Source: an uncultured Methanosarcinales archaeon (GTDB lineage: Archaea; Nanobdellota; Nanobdellia; Woesearchaeales; GW2011-AR9). Taken from it: 64,000 bases of DNA. Each line of letters begins with the position of its first letter. The first letter of the stretch is position 1. Shown here piece after piece: positions 21,979 through 33,032 of this stretch. Location of the stretch: contig CAZKIP010000002.1 in the NCBI GenBank assembly GCA_964552945.1, forward strand, positions 136,990 through 200,989, written 5' to 3'. The position numbers and the translations under genes were made by a program. Under the pieces are notes generated by a model, which was not told the origin of the DNA, did not search any database, and worked only from the letters and a program-made list of their open reading frames with translations.

Positions 21979-23328
21979 TTATTCACACAAACAAAACATG
22001 TGTTCTCTGAAATAATTCATCATTCGAGGAAATTTGTTAATCTTCTCAAAAGTTAGTTTATGACTTTTTACTAACTTCTTAACCTCTTCTTGAGGTAATC
22101 CATAACTTAATTCATAACTTATTTTCGGATCTAATAAAGTTCTTTTTTGTTCAATAACTTTTGTTATTCCAAACTTCTCAGGATTGTTGTAAATAGTTGT
22201 TCCTTGCTGTAAGCCAAAAATGGATGTTGAAATTAAATCAATATTTTCCTCATTTCTTTTAAGAAATTCAATAGTTTGCATAAATTCTTCCTTAGTTTCA
22301 GAAGGAAATCCAAACATGATATAAACCACATTTTTTATCCCTGCTAAATGTGAATCTCTCAGAACATTCTCAACATCTTTACTAATGGTACCTTTCTGCA
22401 TCAACTTTAATATCCTATCACTTCCAGATTCAACTCCCCAAATAACCATTGTTAATCCAGATTCAAATAATACTTCAAATAGCTCTGAAGTAAAATTAAA
22501 AGTTGGTTTCAATTGACAGGTCCATTTAACGTTCAATGGTTTCATTATTTTTGCTATTTCTAAGAGTCTTTTTACAGGAATCATATCGTCAATAAGAAAG
22601 AAATGTTTTGCAGACGAAGCAGAGATAGTTTTTTCAATCAAATCTAAAGGAAATTCATAATATTTCGCTTTACTAAAATGAGTACAAAAGGTACATTTTT
22701 TGTAATAACAAGTGTTTGAAGTCCTTATTGGAATCACAGGATAAGGCGTGAAGTACTCATTAAGATTATATATTGAAAAATCAGGAATTGTATTAAAATC
22801 AACTCTATCATGTTCAATGTTCTCACCTTTTATGTAATTCAGTAGCTCAATCTCATTGTTTAATGTTATATCTGCAAGAGCTGACAACTTTTCATTTACT
22901 GCAGGCCCTCCAATGATTGTTACAACATCCTGCAATTCTTTTATCAATGCATTAGCATAAAATACTTGGCTAGAATAGACAATACTGAAAGCTACAATAT
23001 CTGCATCAAAATCTTTTATTTTTTTCAACAATTCGTTAAAGTATTCAGGTTTCTCAGAATGGATAACTTTTTTATTGTTTTTAGAATAAGTTTGAGAGGA
23101 TAATTTGTGATACTCATTGACAACATCATTATAATTCTCCCACCTCTCAACATCATTGAAATAATTTTGATATTTTGAAAATTTTAATTTGTGAAATTCT
23201 ATATTCAAATCTAATACTTCAACATCTAAATCGCAATTACCTTTCAAGAAAGAATGAAGATGAGTCAATGAATAAGGTGGTGATGCTGGTGTACAAAAAG
23301 GCAGATATACTAATAAGATTTTTTTCAT
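21979..23328 (-). CDS. B12-binding radical SAM protein (class B-like)
   Basis: N-terminal cobalamin-binding-like domain, CYYKKCTFC, GVESGSDRILKLMQKG, MFGFPSET. Confidence 0.9.
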   Translation of the reverse strand: MKKILLVYLPFCTPASPPYSLTHLHSFLKGNCDLDVEVLDLNIEFHKLKFSKYQNYFNDVERWENYNDVVNEYHKLSSQTYSKNNKKVIHSEKPEYFNELLKKIKDFDADIVAFSIVYSSQVFYANALIKELQDVVTIIGGPAVNEKLSALADITLNNEIELLNYIKGENIEHDRVDFNTIPDFSIYNLNEYFTPYPVIPIRTSNTCYYKKCTFCTHFSKAKYYEFPLDLIEKTISASSAKHFFLIDDMIPVKRLLEIAKIMKPLNVKWTCQLKPTFNFTSELFEVLFESGLTMVIWGVESGSDRILKLMQKGTISKDVENVLRDSHLAGIKNVVYIMFGFPSETKEEFMQTIEFLKRNEENIDLISTSIFGLQQGTTIYNNPEKFGITKVIEQKRTLLDPKISYELSYGLPQEEVKKLVKSHKLTFEKINKFPRMMNYFREHMFCLCE

Positions 23329-23341
23329 GTTTAATATTAAA

Positions 23342-23881
23342 TTATTCTAATTCTCGTTTTAGCATTTTGTGAGCATTATTAATTTCCTTAAACTTTTCTA
23401 AATTCCCACCATAAACATCTGGATGAAATTCCTTTGCAAGAACCTTATATTTTTTATTTATTTCATCAATGTCTAATGAATCTTCATTTACACCAAGAAG
23501 AGCTCTTGCCCTTTTTCTATTTTTTTCAATGTCATCATCTTCAGAAAATTTTCTTGTAAATTCGTCAATACTTATTTCTTCATTAATGAATGCATTTACA
23601 TAAAAATTAATTACTTTAGATACCACATACAAATTTTCAACAAATTTATCATACATTTTGTAACTGAAATACAATTTATACCCATCAAAATACCATTCAG
23701 CAATTCCTGGAGAGTTGATTCGACAATTTCCTTCTAATGGGATTTCAACATCATCTTCAGTCAAATTGATCTTTCTGAGAGATGCAATGATGTTATTTCT
23801 CACCTGTTGAGCCCTTCTGTTATAGGAATCTCTAATTGGATTAAAATTAAATTCAGCTCCCCTTACCTTAATTCTTGGCAT
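23342..23881 (-). CDS. C-terminal J-domain (DnaJ-like) protein
   Basis: LLGV ... INKKYKVLAKEFHPD ... FKEINNAH. Confidence 0.88.
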   Translation of the reverse strand: MPRIKVRGAEFNFNPIRDSYNRRAQQVRNNIIASLRKINLTEDDVEIPLEGNCRINSPGIAEWYFDGYKLYFSYKMYDKFVENLYVVSKVINFYVNAFINEEISIDEFTRKFSEDDDIEKNRKRARALLGVNEDSLDIDEINKKYKVLAKEFHPDVYGGNLEKFKEINNAHKMLKRELE

Positions 23882-25130: not shown

Positions 25131-25535
25131 ATGAAATTTATGGCTAAATTCGATCGTTCAAAAATTGGAACTCCTAGAAGAGACAGAAGGAATAAAAGTT
25201 CTAGTGATAGGCATAGAAGAAGATCAAATGATAGGGATTCTGATAGAGGTGGAAGATCTAGAGACAGAGGAGGATTTCGTAGTGGTGGATTTAGAGATAG
25301 AGATTCTGGTCGTGATCGAAGGTCTAGCCGTGAATTAGTTAAAACTAAAGTAACATGTGATTCTTGTAGTAAAGAATGTGAGGTTCCATTCAAACCAACT
25401 AGTTCAAAACCAGTTTACTGTGATGCTTGTTATAAAAAGAACGATAAAGGAAGTTCTGGTAAACGTTCTTCAGGTGATTTAGATTTAGTCCTTGAAAAAC
25501 TTGATAAGATTATGAAAGCTTTAGAAATTAAATAA
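25131..25535 (+). CDS. CxxC-x17-CxxC zinc-ribbon protein with an R/G/D/S-rich N-terminus
   Basis: CDSC-SKECEVPFKPTSSKPVY-CDAC. Confidence 0.88.
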   Translation: MKFMAKFDRSKIGTPRRDRRNKSSSDRHRRRSNDRDSDRGGRSRDRGGFRSGGFRDRDSGRDRRSSRELVKTKVTCDSCSKECEVPFKPTSSKPVYCDACYKKNDKGSSGKRSSGDLDLVLEKLDKIMKALEIK

Positions 25536-25551
25536 TGCTTATTCAATATTG

Positions 25552-26001
25552 TTACATTATCACAAATTCTGTTTTAATCTGTTTAAGTGATGTCAATGAG
25601 ACTATTTTATCAATTCCCTTTCTTGAAATAACATTCTTTAGAAAACTATAATATGATTCCATATTTTTTGTTCTGACCTTAATAATCATTTCCCAATTAC
25701 CAGTACACACATCCACACTTTCAATCTCATCATGTTTAGCTAATTCATTACCAATTCTCTCTGGATCTCCATATTCGTCTGAAGATAACCTAATCAAAAC
25801 ATGTGTACAAAATCCCTCATCAATTTTCTTATAATCAAAAATTGCCTTGTATGCTTTAATAGCCCCTTCTTTCTCTAATTTTTTGATATTGTAATGAATT
25901 GTTGTAGAGGGTTCTTTGAGCTTTTTTGCTATTCTAGAGATTTGGGGAGTACAATATCCTTGCTTGAACAACGAAACAAGTTTAGCCTTTATGTTTTTCA
26001 T
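25552..26001 (-). CDS. Lrp/AsnC family regulator
   Basis: N-terminal HTH (ISRIAKKL ... IKKLEKEGAI) and RAM domain (TGNWEMIIKV). Confidence 0.9.
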   Translation of the reverse strand: MKNIKAKLVSLFKQGYCTPQISRIAKKLKEPSTTIHYNIKKLEKEGAIKAYKAIFDYKKIDEGFCTHVLIRLSSDEYGDPERIGNELAKHDEIESVDVCTGNWEMIIKVRTKNMESYYSFLKNVISRKGIDKIVSLTSLKQIKTEFVIM

Positions 26002-26095
26002 AAAGTTGAATAATATCCCACTTTATATAAATCTTTTGACAATTTATCGAATATTCTGCAAGAAAGTATATTAACGATAAGGTAATATAGAATAC

Positions 26096-26788
26096 ATGCC
26101 AAATATTAATCTGACAACTGATGAAGAAATTCATAATGAAATGGCACTCACTAGAGAGAACAAAAACATCCATCCTTCACTTGAAACTGAAAAAATGAGT
26201 GAAAGAAAGCTAGTGTGGCCTGAATTTGATTTTACTATAGATGACAAATTTGAAATTATAAACTTAAATAGATCAAATTTAGATTTGATTGAAAAAACTG
26301 CTTGGATATATCGTCTAGGATTTCCTGAACTATTTTGTGGAGTTTATGAAGATTTACATTTCCCTCAAAGATATGCAAATCTGCTGGGAGAAAAAAAAAT
26401 AATGGCACTCAAAAACATGCAAAATGGTGATGTTGCTTCAGCATGGTGCTTGTCACCAAGCGATCTGAACATGAGTGTTGAGTTTTCATTAACTGTCACA
26501 AACCCTGAATACCGAGGACAGGGATTATGTAGAAAATTCACCAAAATAATTGACAAAGTAGTTGAAAAAGCAGGTACAGAATTAGGTATTGTTTATTGTG
26601 CGACTTTTCATACTGCAACACAAAAAATATTTACTGAAGTTGGATTTGAAATGCAAGCTTTACTCAGAGGTTTTGTAGTTGCAAATGCAGGAGATGGAAA
26701 GTATGCAAGAGACAATGTAGTATTGTACACAAAATTATACAATCAAGCTGATAGATTATGCCCTCAAAGAATTGAATTAATGAAGTAA
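26096..26788 (+). CDS. GNAT family acetyltransferase
   Basis: VTNPEYRGQGL motif A, then TQKIFTEVGF. Confidence 0.85.
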   Translation: MPNINLTTDEEIHNEMALTRENKNIHPSLETEKMSERKLVWPEFDFTIDDKFEIINLNRSNLDLIEKTAWIYRLGFPELFCGVYEDLHFPQRYANLLGEKKIMALKNMQNGDVASAWCLSPSDLNMSVEFSLTVTNPEYRGQGLCRKFTKIIDKVVEKAGTELGIVYCATFHTATQKIFTEVGFEMQALLRGFVVANAGDGKYARDNVVLYTKLYNQADRLCPQRIELMK

Positions 26789-26842
26789 AATATGGAGCGA
26801 AAAAAATGAACCAAAATGAAATAGAGGCTAAGGCACGGAATA

Positions 26843-27700
26843 GTGCTGGTCGCCGGTATCAAAACAAAAGAAGAGTTAGTAAAACTAATCAATAGAGAAC
26901 CATTGATTGATGCTTCAGCATCATCAGAAGGCATTTCTTCCATAGATGAAGTCAAGGCATTGTATTTTGGAGTAGGTATTTGCAATGGAGTTCCATTACT
27001 TAGCCGTGGACTTCCAGTCGATGTTTTAAGCATGATTCTCACTGCCGAGCAATTAGATGTTCCAAAAAATTTCTTAATTGCAGACACTCATGCATTAAGC
27101 AACAATTTTTCTCAACATGAAGTTGACATAGTTGCAGGATGCTACCAAGAAAAAATTCAAAGAGCCATTGAAAACATGGGTCTAAAAAATTGGGAAATTG
27201 TGCTTGCTTCTCAAATAGACAAAAGCAAACAATACTTAGATCTCTTGAGTTCTGTACAAGGCTCGCATGAATACATTAGAAGAGAATTAGCAGATATGCT
27301 TTGGTTTGTTAATGAAAAAAAGGTCAATTTGAAAGTTGGTTGGGCTCTCAAAGGAAGTAAGAACTCTGATGAGAAATCATTTGACAAAAAATTTCAAGAA
27401 CAATTTGATGAAAAACTTGGATTTGTCTACAATGTACCTGGTAGAACATTCAATCCAAGTAGACCAAGAGCTGCACCATATTTCTCTGCGATTAACAGAG
27501 ATAGAATTATGCTTGATTCTGATGAAGATGTAGCTGCAAAACTCTCTTTTGCTCAAGAGATACATGGTAAACATGGAAGAAAACCATACGAAAAATTTCT
27601 TGGCCATTTGGTCAGATTTTACGAAAGGACAAATGGAAAATTGGAGCATGGACCAATATCAGATAGATTGCAGCAAATAATTAGTATATGTACAAAATGA
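26843..27700 (+). CDS. class Ic aaRS (TyrRS/TrpRS)-like Rossmann-fold protein lacking HIGH, KMSKS and the anticodon domain
   Basis: LYFG, LIADTHALSN, ENMGLK-WEIVLASQ, YIRRELAD, KVGW and RIMLDSDEDVAAKL parallel the TyrRS/TrpRS catalytic domain; start codon uncertain. Confidence 0.6.
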   Translation: MLVAGIKTKEELVKLINREPLIDASASSEGISSIDEVKALYFGVGICNGVPLLSRGLPVDVLSMILTAEQLDVPKNFLIADTHALSNNFSQHEVDIVAGCYQEKIQRAIENMGLKNWEIVLASQIDKSKQYLDLLSSVQGSHEYIRRELADMLWFVNEKKVNLKVGWALKGSKNSDEKSFDKKFQEQFDEKLGFVYNVPGRTFNPSRPRAAPYFSAINRDRIMLDSDEDVAAKLSFAQEIHGKHGRKPYEKFLGHLVRFYERTNGKLEHGPISDRLQQIISICTK

Positions 27701-28389
27701 AACATAAAATCATAGGATTGGTTGGAGGATTAGGACCAGAAACCGGATGCATGGTTTGTCTTGATGTAAATATCAAGTTCAAAATGTTTACGAATAGACA
27801 ACCACACATTTTACTAGATAATCTTCCAATTACCCATGAATCTGAAAAAAAGTTGATAGGTGGAGGTCCTTCACAAGAACATCTGAACCTACTGATTAAA
27901 TCAGTAGAAAGATTGAACATGATGGGAGCTAGTTTCATAGCAATTGCATGTAATACAGTTCACATTTTCATAGATGAACTCAGAAGAGATTCATTGGTTC
28001 CTATTTTAAGCATCATTGAAGAAACATCAAAAATATGTGTTGAAATGAAATTGAGTAAAGTTGGCCTCTTGGGTTCTACCAAAACAATTGAAACAGGACT
28101 TCATTCAAAAGAACTCAATAAAAGCAACATAAAAGCAATAATTCCAAATAAAGAAGATCAAGAATTCATCAGTAAATGTATAATCAGAATCATCAACAAA
28201 AAGATTGAGGATGATGACAAAGAAAAAATAATTGAAATAATTAAAAGTCTTCAAAATAATGGTGCCAAAGGAATTATTTTAGGATGTACAGATTTACCAT
28301 TATTGATATCAGAAAATGATTCAGACTTACCAATAATAAATACTACAAAAATATTGGTGAATTCTATCGTTAATAGATTAAAAGAGTGA
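27697..28389 (+). CDS. Asp/Glu racemase family protein
   Basis: IGLVGGLGP, IACNTVH and LGCTDLP (two catalytic Cys); ATGA overlap with the upstream gene. Confidence 0.93.
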   Translation: MKHKIIGLVGGLGPETGCMVCLDVNIKFKMFTNRQPHILLDNLPITHESEKKLIGGGPSQEHLNLLIKSVERLNMMGASFIAIACNTVHIFIDELRRDSLVPILSIIEETSKICVEMKLSKVGLLGSTKTIETGLHSKELNKSNIKAIIPNKEDQEFISKCIIRIINKKIEDDDKEKIIEIIKSLQNNGAKGIILGCTDLPLLISENDSDLPIINTTKILVNSIVNRLKE

Positions 28390-30756: not shown

Positions 30757-31650
30757 TCATTTATTTTTCTTGACAGAATGTCCACCAAATTCATTACGAA
30801 TCGCAGAAATCACCCTTTTACCAAGAACGAAATGATTCATTTTAGACCTTCTTTCTTTAACAGCTTGTTCAAAAGCCATAGCATGCCCTTTTACAGATTT
30901 TACGGTAGCTTCTAGTTCATCTATAGTTACACTGCCAACATGTGGCTTAATATTTTTAAAATCCTTTCTACGCAAAGCAATAGTTGTTAAATCTAATAAC
31001 CAACTCCTTACAACAGAACTATCTTGCCATCCTTCAGTAGCTTCATCCAATTTTATCTTGTGTTTAAACTTACTTAACAATTCCATCCCCTCAGCAATTC
31101 CTTGTAAATAAGTATATTCAATTACATTGTGAACACTTTTAACAAAATGCCCACTCCCAGCTGGACCAAAATATTTATATCCTTTCTTTGTAGATAAGGC
31201 TTTCATAAGAGGTTCAACTGTTTTATATTGAGACTTAGGCCCCCCAATCATTAAAGGATAGCCATTCTTCAATCCCCAAATTCCTCCAGAAACACCAACA
31301 TCAAAAAAATGAACTCCTTTCTTTTTACACCAGACATCATGTCTCTCAGCATTTTTATAAAATGAGTTTGCACCATTAATGATAATGTCTCCTTTCTTTA
31401 AACCTTGTAAAACTTCTTTCATAACTATGTCTGTAACTTTTCCAGCAGGAAGCATTAACCAAACAATCTTTTTCTTACCCAATTTACTCAGAAGTTCTGG
31501 AATGGAATAAGCAGTAACTCCTCCCTTCCTCGCCAATTTCCTTGTACTATCTGGGCTTTTATTATAACCAACAACTTTATGCCCCTTATTTAAGAGTCTA
31601 AGAGACATGTTGTACCCCATTCTACCTAAACCAATGAATCCTATTTTCAT
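30757..31650 (-). CDS. gnd: 6-phosphogluconate dehydrogenase (short form)
   Basis: IGFIGLGRMG, DVGVSGG, GSGHFVKSVHN, RNEFGGH; ATGA overlap with zwf. Confidence 0.93.
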   Translation of the reverse strand: MKIGFIGLGRMGYNMSLRLLNKGHKVVGYNKSPDSTRKLARKGGVTAYSIPELLSKLGKKKIVWLMLPAGKVTDIVMKEVLQGLKKGDIIINGANSFYKNAERHDVWCKKKGVHFFDVGVSGGIWGLKNGYPLMIGGPKSQYKTVEPLMKALSTKKGYKYFGPAGSGHFVKSVHNVIEYTYLQGIAEGMELLSKFKHKIKLDEATEGWQDSSVVRSWLLDLTTIALRRKDFKNIKPHVGSVTIDELEATVKSVKGHAMAFEQAVKERRSKMNHFVLGKRVISAIRNEFGGHSVKKNK

Positions 31651-33032
31651 GAATACCACCTAACTTTATTCTTTTTACTCCATGATTCAAATTCTTTAGG
31701 CCCCTTACTTCCTTTAGAATATGGATGAATTTTGTACTTAGCAACATTGACTCTATCAACAATGTTCCACGCATGTTCAATTTCATCATTTCTGACAAAA
31801 ACAGATTGATCACCTTTGTATACATCTTGCAGCAAATTCTCATATGCCTCAGGTGTATTTGGTTGAGATCTACAACCTTGACAGAAATCCATCTTTACTG
31901 GCTTTGTAAAATTCTTTTGCCCAGGTACCTTGGAATTGAGTTCAAATGAAAATCCATCATGAGGTTGGACCCTGATAGAAAAATAATTTGTATCTCCAGG
32001 ACAAAATTTTGAAAGTAAACAATCAACTTCTTTAAACTTAATGTGAATACTGGTTTCTTTTTTATTCAAGAATTTTCCTGCTCTAACAAAAAAAGAAACT
32101 CCTTTCCATCTCGAATTGTTAATCTCTAATCTTAAAGCAACAAAGGTGTTTACTTTTGAATTTTTTGCTACACCTTTAATCTTTTTATAACCCGGATATT
32201 GACCAAAAATAGCATCTTTAATTTTAACTTTTTTCAATAATTTGGCTTTCTCATCTCTAATGTAATCACCGCTTAATTTATTTGGAGCTTCGATAGTTGT
32301 CAAAGCAAGTAATTGCATAGCATGATTTTGTATAACGTCTTTAAAAGCACCATAACGTTCATAGAAATCACCCCTTCCTTCTAAGCCAACATCTTCATCC
32401 ATTATTATTTGAATGGATTCAATGTCTTTATTTGACCACAAAGGTTCTAAAATTCGATTGGTAAACCGCATCAATGAAATATCACCCACCAATTCCTTAC
32501 CTAAATAATGATCGATTCTGTAAACTTGTTTTTCTTTGAAAACTCTCTGGATACATTTGTTTATTTTCATAGCAGAAGCCAAATCCCATCCAAATGGCTT
32601 TTCATATACAACTTTTACCCATTGCTTAGCAGCAACTTTTGAAAGTCTACTTTTTTGTAAATTCGAAGTGATTTTATCAAAATGTTGTGGTGCAGCTGCA
32701 AAATAAAAAATTCTGTTTCCAGAAAGACGATGTTTTCTTTCAATTTTTGATAAAAAACTTCCAAAGGTATGATAATCTTCTTCTTTATAAAAATCAAGAT
32801 GGTGGAAGTAAGCAGCATTCTCCAATTTACTCCAAACATTTTTATCAATGTTTTTAATGTATGGTCTTGACGAAGCTAAAATTTTTTTAATAGTTGTTTT
32901 ACCTCTTGCAGCCCCAAATAAAGTGAATTTGTTTATTTTTTTGTTTCTTATTAAATGATATATTGCAGGAATAAGCTTCCTTTTAGTCAAATCTCCTGTT
33001 GCTCCAAAAATTATAAATGTTACATCATCCAT
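31647..33032 (-). CDS. zwf: glucose-6-phosphate 1-dehydrogenase (bacterial type)
   Basis: FGATGDL, EKPFG, RIDHYLGKE, DVIQNH. Confidence 0.96.
   Translation of the reverse strand: MDDVTFIIFGATGDLTKRKLIPAIYHLIRNKKINKFTLFGAARGKTTIKKILASSRPYIKNIDKNVWSKLENAAYFHHLDFYKEEDYHTFGSFLSKIERKHRLSGNRIFYFAAAPQHFDKITSNLQKSRLSKVAAKQWVKVVYEKPFGWDLASAMKINKCIQRVFKEKQVYRIDHYLGKELVGDISLMRFTNRILEPLWSNKDIESIQIIMDEDVGLEGRGDFYERYGAFKDVIQNHAMQLLALTTIEAPNKLSGDYIRDEKAKLLKKVKIKDAIFGQYPGYKKIKGVAKNSKVNTFVALRLEINNSRWKGVSFFVRAGKFLNKKETSIHIKFKEVDCLLSKFCPGDTNYFSIRVQPHDGFSFELNSKVPGQKNFTKPVKMDFCQGCRSQPNTPEAYENLLQDVYKGDQSVFVRNDEIEHAWNIVDRVNVAKYKIHPYSKGSKGPKEFESWSKKNKVRWYS

Follow-up and report, generated by a model that had tools for sequence, protein, structure and literature searches.

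Synthetase paralogs that do not carry out adenylation are a known kind of protein. Cyclodipeptide synthases (CDPSs; AlbC, Rv2275 and others) carry a Rossmann domain derived from class Ic aminoacyl-tRNA synthetases that has lost the ATP motifs and keeps an aminoacyl pocket with a Y-x-x-x-E motif; a catalytic serine after strand 1 forms an aminoacyl-enzyme, and the usual genomic context is one of tailoring oxidases. HisZ, a paralog of the class II synthetase HisRS, regulates ATP-phosphoribosyltransferase, a biosynthetic enzyme. In HisZ, as in the double-length tyrosyl-tRNA synthetase (TyrRS) of trypanosomatids, a synthetase-derived unit that has lost its aminoacylation motifs persists next to a functional partner or fused with it. 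Here we describe a protein that has likewise lost such motifs, X285, and the family to which it belongs. X285 is the 285-amino-acid product of a gene with a GTG start at positions 26843-27700 (+) of a 64,000-nucleotide stretch of the archaeal contig CAZKIP010000002.1 (the whole stretch is called the window below). The best explanation of its sequence is a duplicated TyrRS catalytic domain that has apparently lost the ability to form an aminoacyl-adenylate. We propose, with a probability of roughly 35%, that X285 is a TyrRS paralog with specificity for tyrosine but no adenylating activity, which takes care of D-/L-tyrosine or tyrosyl-tRNA on behalf of TyrRS, probably in chiral proofreading combined with recycling by a racemase.

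TyrRS has been described as the synthetase with the weakest stereospecificity, lacking an editing domain and dependent on trans-acting factors such as DTD/DTD2 (PMC6765224). The DTD and DTD2 deacylases have no sequence or fold relation to X285; the likeness is one of functional analogy only and lies in the proposed task, guarding the charging of tRNA(Tyr) from D-tyrosine. A review of duplicated synthetases published in 2022 enters nothing for TyrRS under paralog function in its Table 1, and treats CDPSs separately (PMC9437257). An X285-like family was not described in the open-access papers and preprints that we searched by full text. The X285 family, its fusions to TyrRS and its D/L-amino-acid context appear to be undescribed.

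X285 matched no Pfam family at E ≤ 0.1, and its sole NCBIfam match was to the archaeal TyrRS model PRK08560 (E 2.1e-4, residues 73-139, 20.4 bits against a cut-off of 220). When phmmer and profile searches of PDB sequences were run with X285, only human TyrRS was returned, at E 0.5-1, and the ESM Atlas gave sub-threshold leads only (best 0.84, the meaningful level being 0.9). An AlphaFold2 model built from an alignment of 25 relatives had a pLDDT of 91.9 and a pTM of 0.91. In an exhaustive structural search (VIA-align), this model matched A. pernix TyrRS (2cya) over nearly all of its length (249 of the 285 residues, model residues 8-285; Z 19.7, rmsd 3.4); other TyrRS and TrpRS structures gave Z values of 14-18 (TrpRS, 16-17). 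The top Foldseek matches were M. jannaschii TyrRS variants (E 4e-9). The predicted structure confirms that X285 has the class Ic (TyrRS/TrpRS-type) catalytic-domain fold, as the first-pass annotation of the window, made by a model from the sequence alone, had proposed.

That annotation had also held that the ATP motifs are missing, and this proved to be the case for X285 and its relatives. No histidine is found at residues 45-60 of X285 or of its 24 aligned relatives, where the segment reads L-S-x-G-L-P-x-D; the profile aligner hhalign sets the HIGH motif of TyrRS opposite L52-R55. A KMSKS-like motif is likewise absent from these sequences, and the loop after strand 5, which stands in its place, carries the conserved residues G200, P212-Y213 and R221. 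The third loss compared with TyrRS is the ribose-binding G-x-D-Q position; our statements about the former ribose and KMSKS sites come from secondary-structure collinearity and not from residue-level superposition. In contrast, the A-D-x-H-A-x-x-N and Y-x-x-x-[QE]-x-x-D motifs of TyrRS are collinear with X285. The Y-x-x-x-E motif on which the annotation had remarked is present (Y144, E148) and aligns with the Y...Q of the TyrRS of the same genome. The further claim that X285 has no anticodon domain was too strong: two C-terminal helices (230-264 and 272-284) fall inside the range aligned to TyrRS chains (to residue 343 of 2cya), and we read these modeled helices as a truncated remnant of the TyrRS C-terminal helical domain. 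The window genome has one normal TyrRS and two TrpRS genes elsewhere, away from X285, which is its fourth, very divergent class Ic paralog. Both TrpRS paralogs (genome G000, contigs C5 and C20; loci L013 and L014) are full-length, with HIGH-type and KMSSS motifs.

X285 is one member of a large family that falls under no Pfam or NCBIfam model and whose signal in the sequence searches is far above chance. A word-indexed search found 37 proteins at E ≤ 0.001 (weakest, 8e-40), nearly all of ~285 amino acids; the named ones come from metagenome-assembled genomes of Woesearchaeota. A profile search of 1.84 billion representatives returned 511 clusters (at 50% identity) with E ≤ 0.001, including 402 at ≤ 1e-10 and 209 at ≤ 1e-30; one named member is from a Simkaniaceae bacterium. 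In the source annotations, family members are hypothetical proteins. We aligned the window X285 with those of the 150 best hits that had at least 240 amino acids, trimming four fusion proteins to the domain, to give 137 members. Nine residues are invariant (G43, G45, P58, K164, W167, E177, P212, Y213 and R221), four more are kept in at least 135 of the 137 (D60, Y144, D181 and G200), and A80, D81, H83, A84, S123, D151 and D176 are kept in at least ~90%. Conserved residues that set the family apart from TyrRS are P58, D60, K164, W167, E177, P212, Y213 and R221. When 70 members were scanned singly against Pfam, the only family matched by more than one of them was tRNA-synt_1b (PF00579), which comprises TyrRS; it was matched weakly, by 10 members (best E 7.2e-4).

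The first-pass annotation had likened X285 to the CDPSs. The fold is indeed common to both, but CDPS structures matched the model with Z values of only 8-12, the best (11.9) over 166 residues (model residues 19-201) compared with 19.7 over 249 residues for TyrRS; helices follow the Rossmann domain in X285, and the CDPS family (PF16715) was not among the 25 Pfam families listed for the 70 members. The analogy is thus weak. The same data bear on an alternative to our proposal, in which X285 is a tRNA-dependent transferase that accepts the Tyr-tRNA(Tyr) charged by TyrRS and passes its tyrosyl group to an amine or another aminoacyl-tRNA, in the manner of a CDPS or an SbzA-type enzyme; the product, a tyrosine dipeptide or amide, would be tailored by racemase/epimerase, ligase, GNAT and peptidase neighbours and exported by a transporter. 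Such an enzyme could well look like X285, with the fold shared with CDPSs, the ATP motifs gone and the aminoacyl pocket retained, and some of the weak ESM Atlas leads are to CDPS and PvcA clusters (0.80-0.81, below the meaningful 0.9). TyrRS is, however, by far the better structural match, CDPS does not recur among the Pfam families of the 70 members, and no Ser or Cys after strand 1 is invariant in the 137: position 47 is C in 69, S in 24, A in 14 and T in 12, position 48 is T, S, N or G, and the residues fixed there are G43 and G45.

To compare the pocket with that of TyrRS, we used 15 Nanoarchaeota TyrRS sequences, kept from 30 fetched loci for showing both signature patterns. Profile comparison of a narrow X285 alignment with a single TyrRS or with the 15 gave no usable match; the 137-member alignment alone was significant (hhalign probability 93%, E 3.4e-7), the resulting alignment being wrong after residue 160. 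It sets Y41 opposite the Tyr of the TyrRS strand-1 motif; A80-D81 and N87 fall on the A-D...N motif, and Y144/E148/D151 on the Y...Q..D motif of the TyrRS encoded in the window genome. In TyrRS, the residues opposite Y41, D81, Y144, E148 and D151 bind the substrate tyrosine through its alpha-amino group and its phenolic OH. Within the X285 family, D81 is present in 133/137 members, Y144 in 135/137 and D151 in 124/137, and position 148 holds glutamate in 81 members and glutamine in the other 56. From these conserved positions, X285 seems to retain a tyrosine-shaped amino-acid pocket, and we infer that tyrosine is the ligand. All seven sequences with W41 have N83, which is found nowhere else, and Q or H at position 151. 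Covariation of this sort is as expected if the three residues line one pocket and set the identity of the ligand. It suggests that this subgroup (P0132, P0149, P0161, P0180, P0181, P0183 and P0185), which has these residues in place of Y or F at 41, H83 and D151, may bind a different amino acid.

Four longer proteins were present among the 150 listed hits, and in three of them the X285 domain is fused to TyrRS, with three different architectures. In P0056 the X285 domain precedes a bacterial-type TyrRS (TIGR00234, 227.4 bits, cut-off 113.8); in P0059, found on six contigs as a cluster of three, it follows TyrRS (TIGR00234, 268.7 bits); and in P0093 it precedes an archaeal-type TyrRS (PRK08560, 320.4 bits, cut-off 220). 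In the source annotations these fusions are named simply TyrRS. The fourth protein, P0057, consists of a GNAT domain (Acetyltransf_6; PF13480, 89.4 bits, cut-off 22) followed by the X285 domain; its GNAT domain, of a different family, has no similarity to the GNAT encoded in the window. A search for further, longer fused forms found none among 8000 scored candidates, which is weak evidence.

The neighbourhoods of X285 genes pointed to the same partner. A metagenome scan yielded 48 loci; it was made with a narrower alignment and one sequence pattern and covers part of the family only. Neighbours were assigned by crude gene calls and BLAST clustering, and loci whose X285 proteins are at least 90% identical were collapsed into groups. 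A TyrRS gene was found no more than three genes from X285 in 26 of the 45 metagenome loci having neighbours, and in 19/35 after collapsing. All eight adjacent synthetases tested passed TyrRS equivalog cut-offs, and none was a TrpRS; among 31 neighbouring open reading frames (ORFs) labeled TyrRS, simple patterns picked out 25 with a HIGH-type motif and 29 with one of KMSKS type. In one archaeal genome, G109, a TyrRS gene lies ~2 kb from X285. We read TyrRS as the constant partner of the X285 family, with which the family works. A link to aminoacyl-tRNA had been suspected from the sequence of the window; the three fusion architectures and the neighbouring genes make it stronger than the first-pass annotation could know. 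Two loci contain a side-by-side pair of TyrRS-like genes adjoining the X285 homolog: at L057 (3435-5924) both have HIGH- and KMSKS-type motifs, and at L074 (2725-5339) the second lacks both by simple pattern.

Alternatively, X285 could be a non-catalytic tyrosine sensor or adaptor comparable to HisZ, binding L- or D-tyrosine and regulating or feeding TyrRS, the racemase or the stereo-inversion enzymes, or it could form a pseudo-heterodimer with TyrRS as in the double-length trypanosomatid enzyme. Retention of the pocket positions with loss of the catalytic motifs is what such a protein would show, fusions in both domain orders suit a partner domain, and the translational coupling with the racemase described below fits as well. 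Pseudo-dimeric TyrRS provides a precedent (PMC9437257), and Leishmania TyrRS (3p0h) matches the model with Z 16.5. When the X285 profile was run against PDB sequences, the second half of trypanosomatid TyrRS was not among the matches; the X285 family is thus a lineage of its own. The cluster of conserved charged residues that has no counterpart in TyrRS (D60, K164, E177 and R221, with the near-invariant D176 and D181) is more suggestive of a catalytic site than of a sensor, and the partners other than TyrRS vary. We regard a purely non-catalytic role as less likely than our proposal.

The metagenome loci showed the recurrent gene orders GCS-like ligase, enolase-superfamily protein, GATase/C26, X285 and TyrRS, often followed by prephenate dehydratase; TyrRS, GCS-like, X285, enolase-superfamily and GATase; an uncharacterized 423-amino-acid protein, enolase-superfamily, M15 (VanX/VanY-type) peptidase, X285 and TyrRS; X285, a YbaK-type tRNA_edit protein and TyrRS; X285 followed by a class I/II aminotransferase; and an Asp/Glu racemase adjoining X285. 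At least one racemase, epimerase, ligase, hydrolase, peptidase, editing or aminotransferase gene lay near X285 in 31 of 37 non-redundant groups, 35 of which had any neighbour. The enolase-superfamily partners had OSBS/NSAR (TIGR01928) as top model, at 43-169 bits (cut-off 200.65), followed by N-acetyl-D-Glu racemase and L-Ala-D/L-Glu epimerase models. NSAR operons constitute a known pathway of D- to L-amino-acid conversion (PMC12006748, citing Sakai et al. 2006). The logic of that pathway, to acylate, racemise and deacylate, is matched by those X285 operons of other lineages in which a ligase is combined with an OSBS/NSAR-like enolase and an enzyme of amidohydrolase type; they differ in using a GCS2-like ligase and a class I GATase/peptidase C26 or an M15 peptidase, and the window has a single two-Cys racemase in place of all these. 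Judged by the sequence families to which they belong, the recurrent neighbours point to D/L stereo-inversion or to aminoacyl-tRNA editing. With TyrRS as the constant partner, and the others as varied ways to invert or supply the amino acid or to edit the charged tRNA, X285 would deal with D-/L-tyrosine for TyrRS.

The 423-amino-acid protein (L059, 210-1481, and relatives; seven loci) always occurs with an enolase-like gene and an M15 peptidase gene beside X285. It matched no Pfam or NCBIfam model and may be the acylating enzyme of the M15-peptidase variant.

Pairing with an Asp/Glu racemase recurs in the X285 tree. This tree was made with FastTree (LG+gamma, midpoint-rooted, read without support values); it covers X285 proteins from the loci with 250 amino acids or more, the window X285 and the four fusion domains, with L045, L046, L048 and L049 omitted as duplicates. 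The pairing turns up at three distinct positions in it: in the archaeal clade, with L079/L093 and with L088/L089. The bacterial-type racemases of the latter two clades are only 32-35% identical to the window racemase.

One archaeon of the same order, G223, has the ligase-enolase-hydrolase set. Its island (L103, contig C39, 4967-12922) comprises genes for an Lrp/AsnC regulator, X285, a GCS2-type ligase, an enolase-superfamily protein that is 38% identical to the bacterial-type enolase partner, a class I GATase/peptidase C26 and, last, an EamA transporter; genes for an aminotransferase and a bacterial-type TyrRS run convergently to these. The latter is an extra copy, since G223 has three PF00579 genes. 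The island looks horizontally acquired.

Neighbourhoods like these can also be read in favour of the tRNA-dependent transferase. GCS2-type ligases, dipeptide-epimerase-like enolases and C26 and M15 peptidases all act on small peptides; TyrRS, fused or adjacent, could provide the substrate; the extra TyrRS, transporter and regulator of G223 resemble a biosynthetic cluster with its own synthetase; and a GNAT gene adjoins X285 in the window, as a GNAT domain is fused to it in P0057. Yet the accessory sets vary by lineage, whereas one product needs one pathway, YbaK editing factors suit biosynthesis poorly, the GNAT gene is not conserved, and the hosts are small-genome organisms. The first-pass annotation had predicted tRNA-dependent formation of an amide bond. 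The shared fold and the TyrRS link agree with this prediction; the accessory genes, because they differ by lineage, fit alternative solutions to D-/L-tyrosine handling around TyrRS better than one fixed biosynthetic pathway. We consider a transferase less likely than our proposal, but a serious competitor to it.

In the window, the four genes stand as the first-pass annotation had placed them: a gene for an Lrp/AsnC-family regulator (149 amino acids, 25552-26001, -), divergent from an operon of genes for a GNAT (230 amino acids, 26096-26788, +), X285 and a pyridoxal phosphate (PLP)-independent two-Cys racemase of the Asp/Glu/hydantoin family (233 amino acids, 27688-28389, +). The last two genes overlap: the X285 stop codon TGA (27698-27700) shares bases with an ATG at 27697, in the ATGA coupling noted before. 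The racemase ORF has its first ATG at 27688, and the overlapping one encodes its Met4. The racemase matched PF01177 (110.8 bits, cut-off 31) and TIGR00035 (150.3 bits, above the cut-off of 93.1), and all equivalog models fell below their cut-offs (CuyB, 142.4 against 190; PRK10200, 80.3 against 417). Its catalytic cysteines are C88 and C200, and both motifs are invariant in 9/9 aligned co-located racemases.

In nine of the 11 related genome loci (L001-L009) X285 is immediately followed by the racemase gene, and a Lrp gene, 68-77% identical, is divergently placed upstream of X285 in 7/11, and also in G109 and G221. At L011 an aminotransferase stands where the racemase stands elsewhere. A GNAT gene was found in none of the 11 genome loci, and none of the 48 metagenome loci carries a GNAT label. 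What is conserved in archaea is the unit Lrp-X285-racemase, and the GNAT occurs in this window only. Conservation of the neighbourhood, which the first-pass annotation had proposed as a check, therefore holds for X285 with a racemase or epimerase and fails for the GNAT, and the three-gene cluster has to be redefined without the latter. Beside two of the X285-racemase pairs (L008, 649-1947; L004, 2171-2611) we observed genes for a beta-propeller protein and a small protein of 120-146 amino acids, neither with a Pfam match; the N-terminal stretches of the small proteins of the two archaeal loci look alike by eye.

Among 401 genomes of the phylum, seven, all from one order, contain X285; the racemase gene adjoins it in six, and G223 has the ligase-enolase-hydrolase set instead. 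X285 is absent from the 41 other genomes of the window's own family. The module is accessory and patchy in distribution, its function being accessory because it is rare in both the phylum and its own family, and it is probably mobile. A comparison of synteny with G127, of the same genus, did not delimit an island: flanking genes matched only at 28-33% identity and on other contigs.

Such rarity, and a TyrRS gene unlinked to X285 in the window genome, are what might be expected if the neighbours share no function and X285 is a decaying or neutral TyrRS duplicate. This is highly improbable, given the invariant residues maintained across 511 clusters, the X285-racemase order in 9/11 loci with overlapping stop and start codons, the racemase pairing in at least three clades of the tree and the fusions to TyrRS.

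The distribution of known D-tyrosyl deacylases was compared with that of X285. Neither DTD nor DTD2 was matched in the window genome, which its markers show to be 100% complete, or in G021 and G221, as would suit a role of X285 in clearing D-tyrosine. Bacterial DTD is absent from 6/6 X285-bearing genomes tested. DTD2, however, is present in 4/7 X285-bearing genomes compared with 165/401 in the phylum sample, a tally that includes the unpublished genomes G332 and G359. The idea of X285 as a DTD substitute by phyletic complementarity is unsupported by these numbers, which show no complementary distribution.

On our proposal, the module could work as follows. X285 would bind a tyrosyl moiety; this could be free D-/L-tyrosine but is more likely the tyrosyl group esterified to the 3' end of tRNA(Tyr). 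K164, W167, D176, E177, D181, Y213 and R221, newly fixed in the former ATP site, would act on the group linked to the carboxyl. TyrRS charges D-tyrosine, and X285 would remove or capture D-tyrosyl-tRNA(Tyr) or D-tyrosyl adenylate in the remodeled site; the translationally coupled racemase would turn the released D-tyrosine into L-tyrosine. In other lineages the racemase's part may be taken by a ligase with an N-acyl-amino-acid racemase and a hydrolase, by an aminotransferase or by a VanX-like peptidase. Through Lrp, an amino acid would induce the module, and the GNAT of the window could, as a speculation, acetylate the D-amino acid. That the substrate is a tRNA ester, that the chemistry is hydrolysis and that racemisation runs in this direction, we infer. 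Extended to the whole family, the proposal becomes more tentative: X285 proteins might be the missing "editing domain" of TyrRS, made from a duplicated synthetic site without ATP motifs, acting in trans or (in the three fusion architectures) in cis to clear D-tyrosyl or other wrong tyrosyl-like groups from tRNA(Tyr), wired to recycling by D-to-L stereo-inversion, and carried by archaea and bacteria with small genomes as a "tyrosine chirality" module that is mobile.

Several observations weigh against a role of X285 in tyrosine chirality. The closest solved relative of the racemase is an aspartate and not a tyrosine racemase (P. horikoshii 1jfl, E 1.2e-30, aligned over the full length). Position 41, a pocket residue, is Y in only 65/137 members and F in 44/137. 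A YbaK-type deacylase stands alongside X285 in 4/35 groups, where a deacylase is thus already at hand, and the frequency of DTD2 in X285-bearing genomes, the rarity of X285 in the phylum and its absence from related genomes of the window's family all count on the same side. In the window genome, TyrRS is on another contig than X285. The collinearity argument for the former ATP site, the failure of the profile alignment beyond residue 160 and the partial coverage of the metagenome scan lower our confidence further.

If X285 proofreads or feeds tyrosine, it would represent a new way to keep translation homochiral and, if this is true, a new example of a synthetic site reused for other chemistry. 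If it is instead a tRNA-dependent transferase, the same fold would have given rise to a second CDPS-like invention. Either way, the retention of the module by episymbiotic archaea and bacteria with minimal genomes would be explained, and the 285-amino-acid protein is a defined target, easily expressed, with a testable ligand.

The remaining features of the window locus concern the flanking genes. The Lrp regulator passes the Pfam cut-off for the AsnC-type ligand-binding domain (PF01037, 45.3 bits, cut-off 25), and its N-terminal helix-turn-helix matches are sub-threshold. The divergent intergenic region (26002-26095, no strand) is, by position only, the presumed promoter/operator. A promoter/terminator scan with the sigma-70 consensus, which is not applicable to archaea, gave 17 sites compared with 19.2 expected from shuffles. 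The 230-amino-acid ORF is a GNAT on the evidence of its homologs and predicted structure. Alone, it matched FR47 (E 0.007) and Acetyltransf_3 (E 0.062), both below the Pfam cut-off; of its 13 homologs besides itself, two have PF13508 and one is named GNAT by NCBI, PF00583 also being found among the homologs. Its model (pLDDT 80.6) matched many solved GNATs, the best being 3igr (Foldseek E 4.3e-9).

The genes on either side are unrelated to the cluster and of the housekeeping kind (DEAD-box helicase, zinc-finger protein, cold-shock protein, Na+/H+ exchanger and methyltransferase). Directly downstream of the helicase gene, positions 25131-25535 (+) encode a 134-amino-acid protein with a treble-clef zinc finger (PF23477, 50.8 bits) and a low-complexity N-terminus rich in Arg, Asp, Ser and Gly. 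A 449-amino-acid radical SAM protein with a B12-binding domain (21979-23328, -) adjoins a DnaJ-domain protein (23342-23881, -). Further along, at 30757-33032 (-), overlapping genes resemble, from translations read by eye, those for a 6-phosphogluconate-dehydrogenase-like protein and glucose-6-phosphate dehydrogenase.

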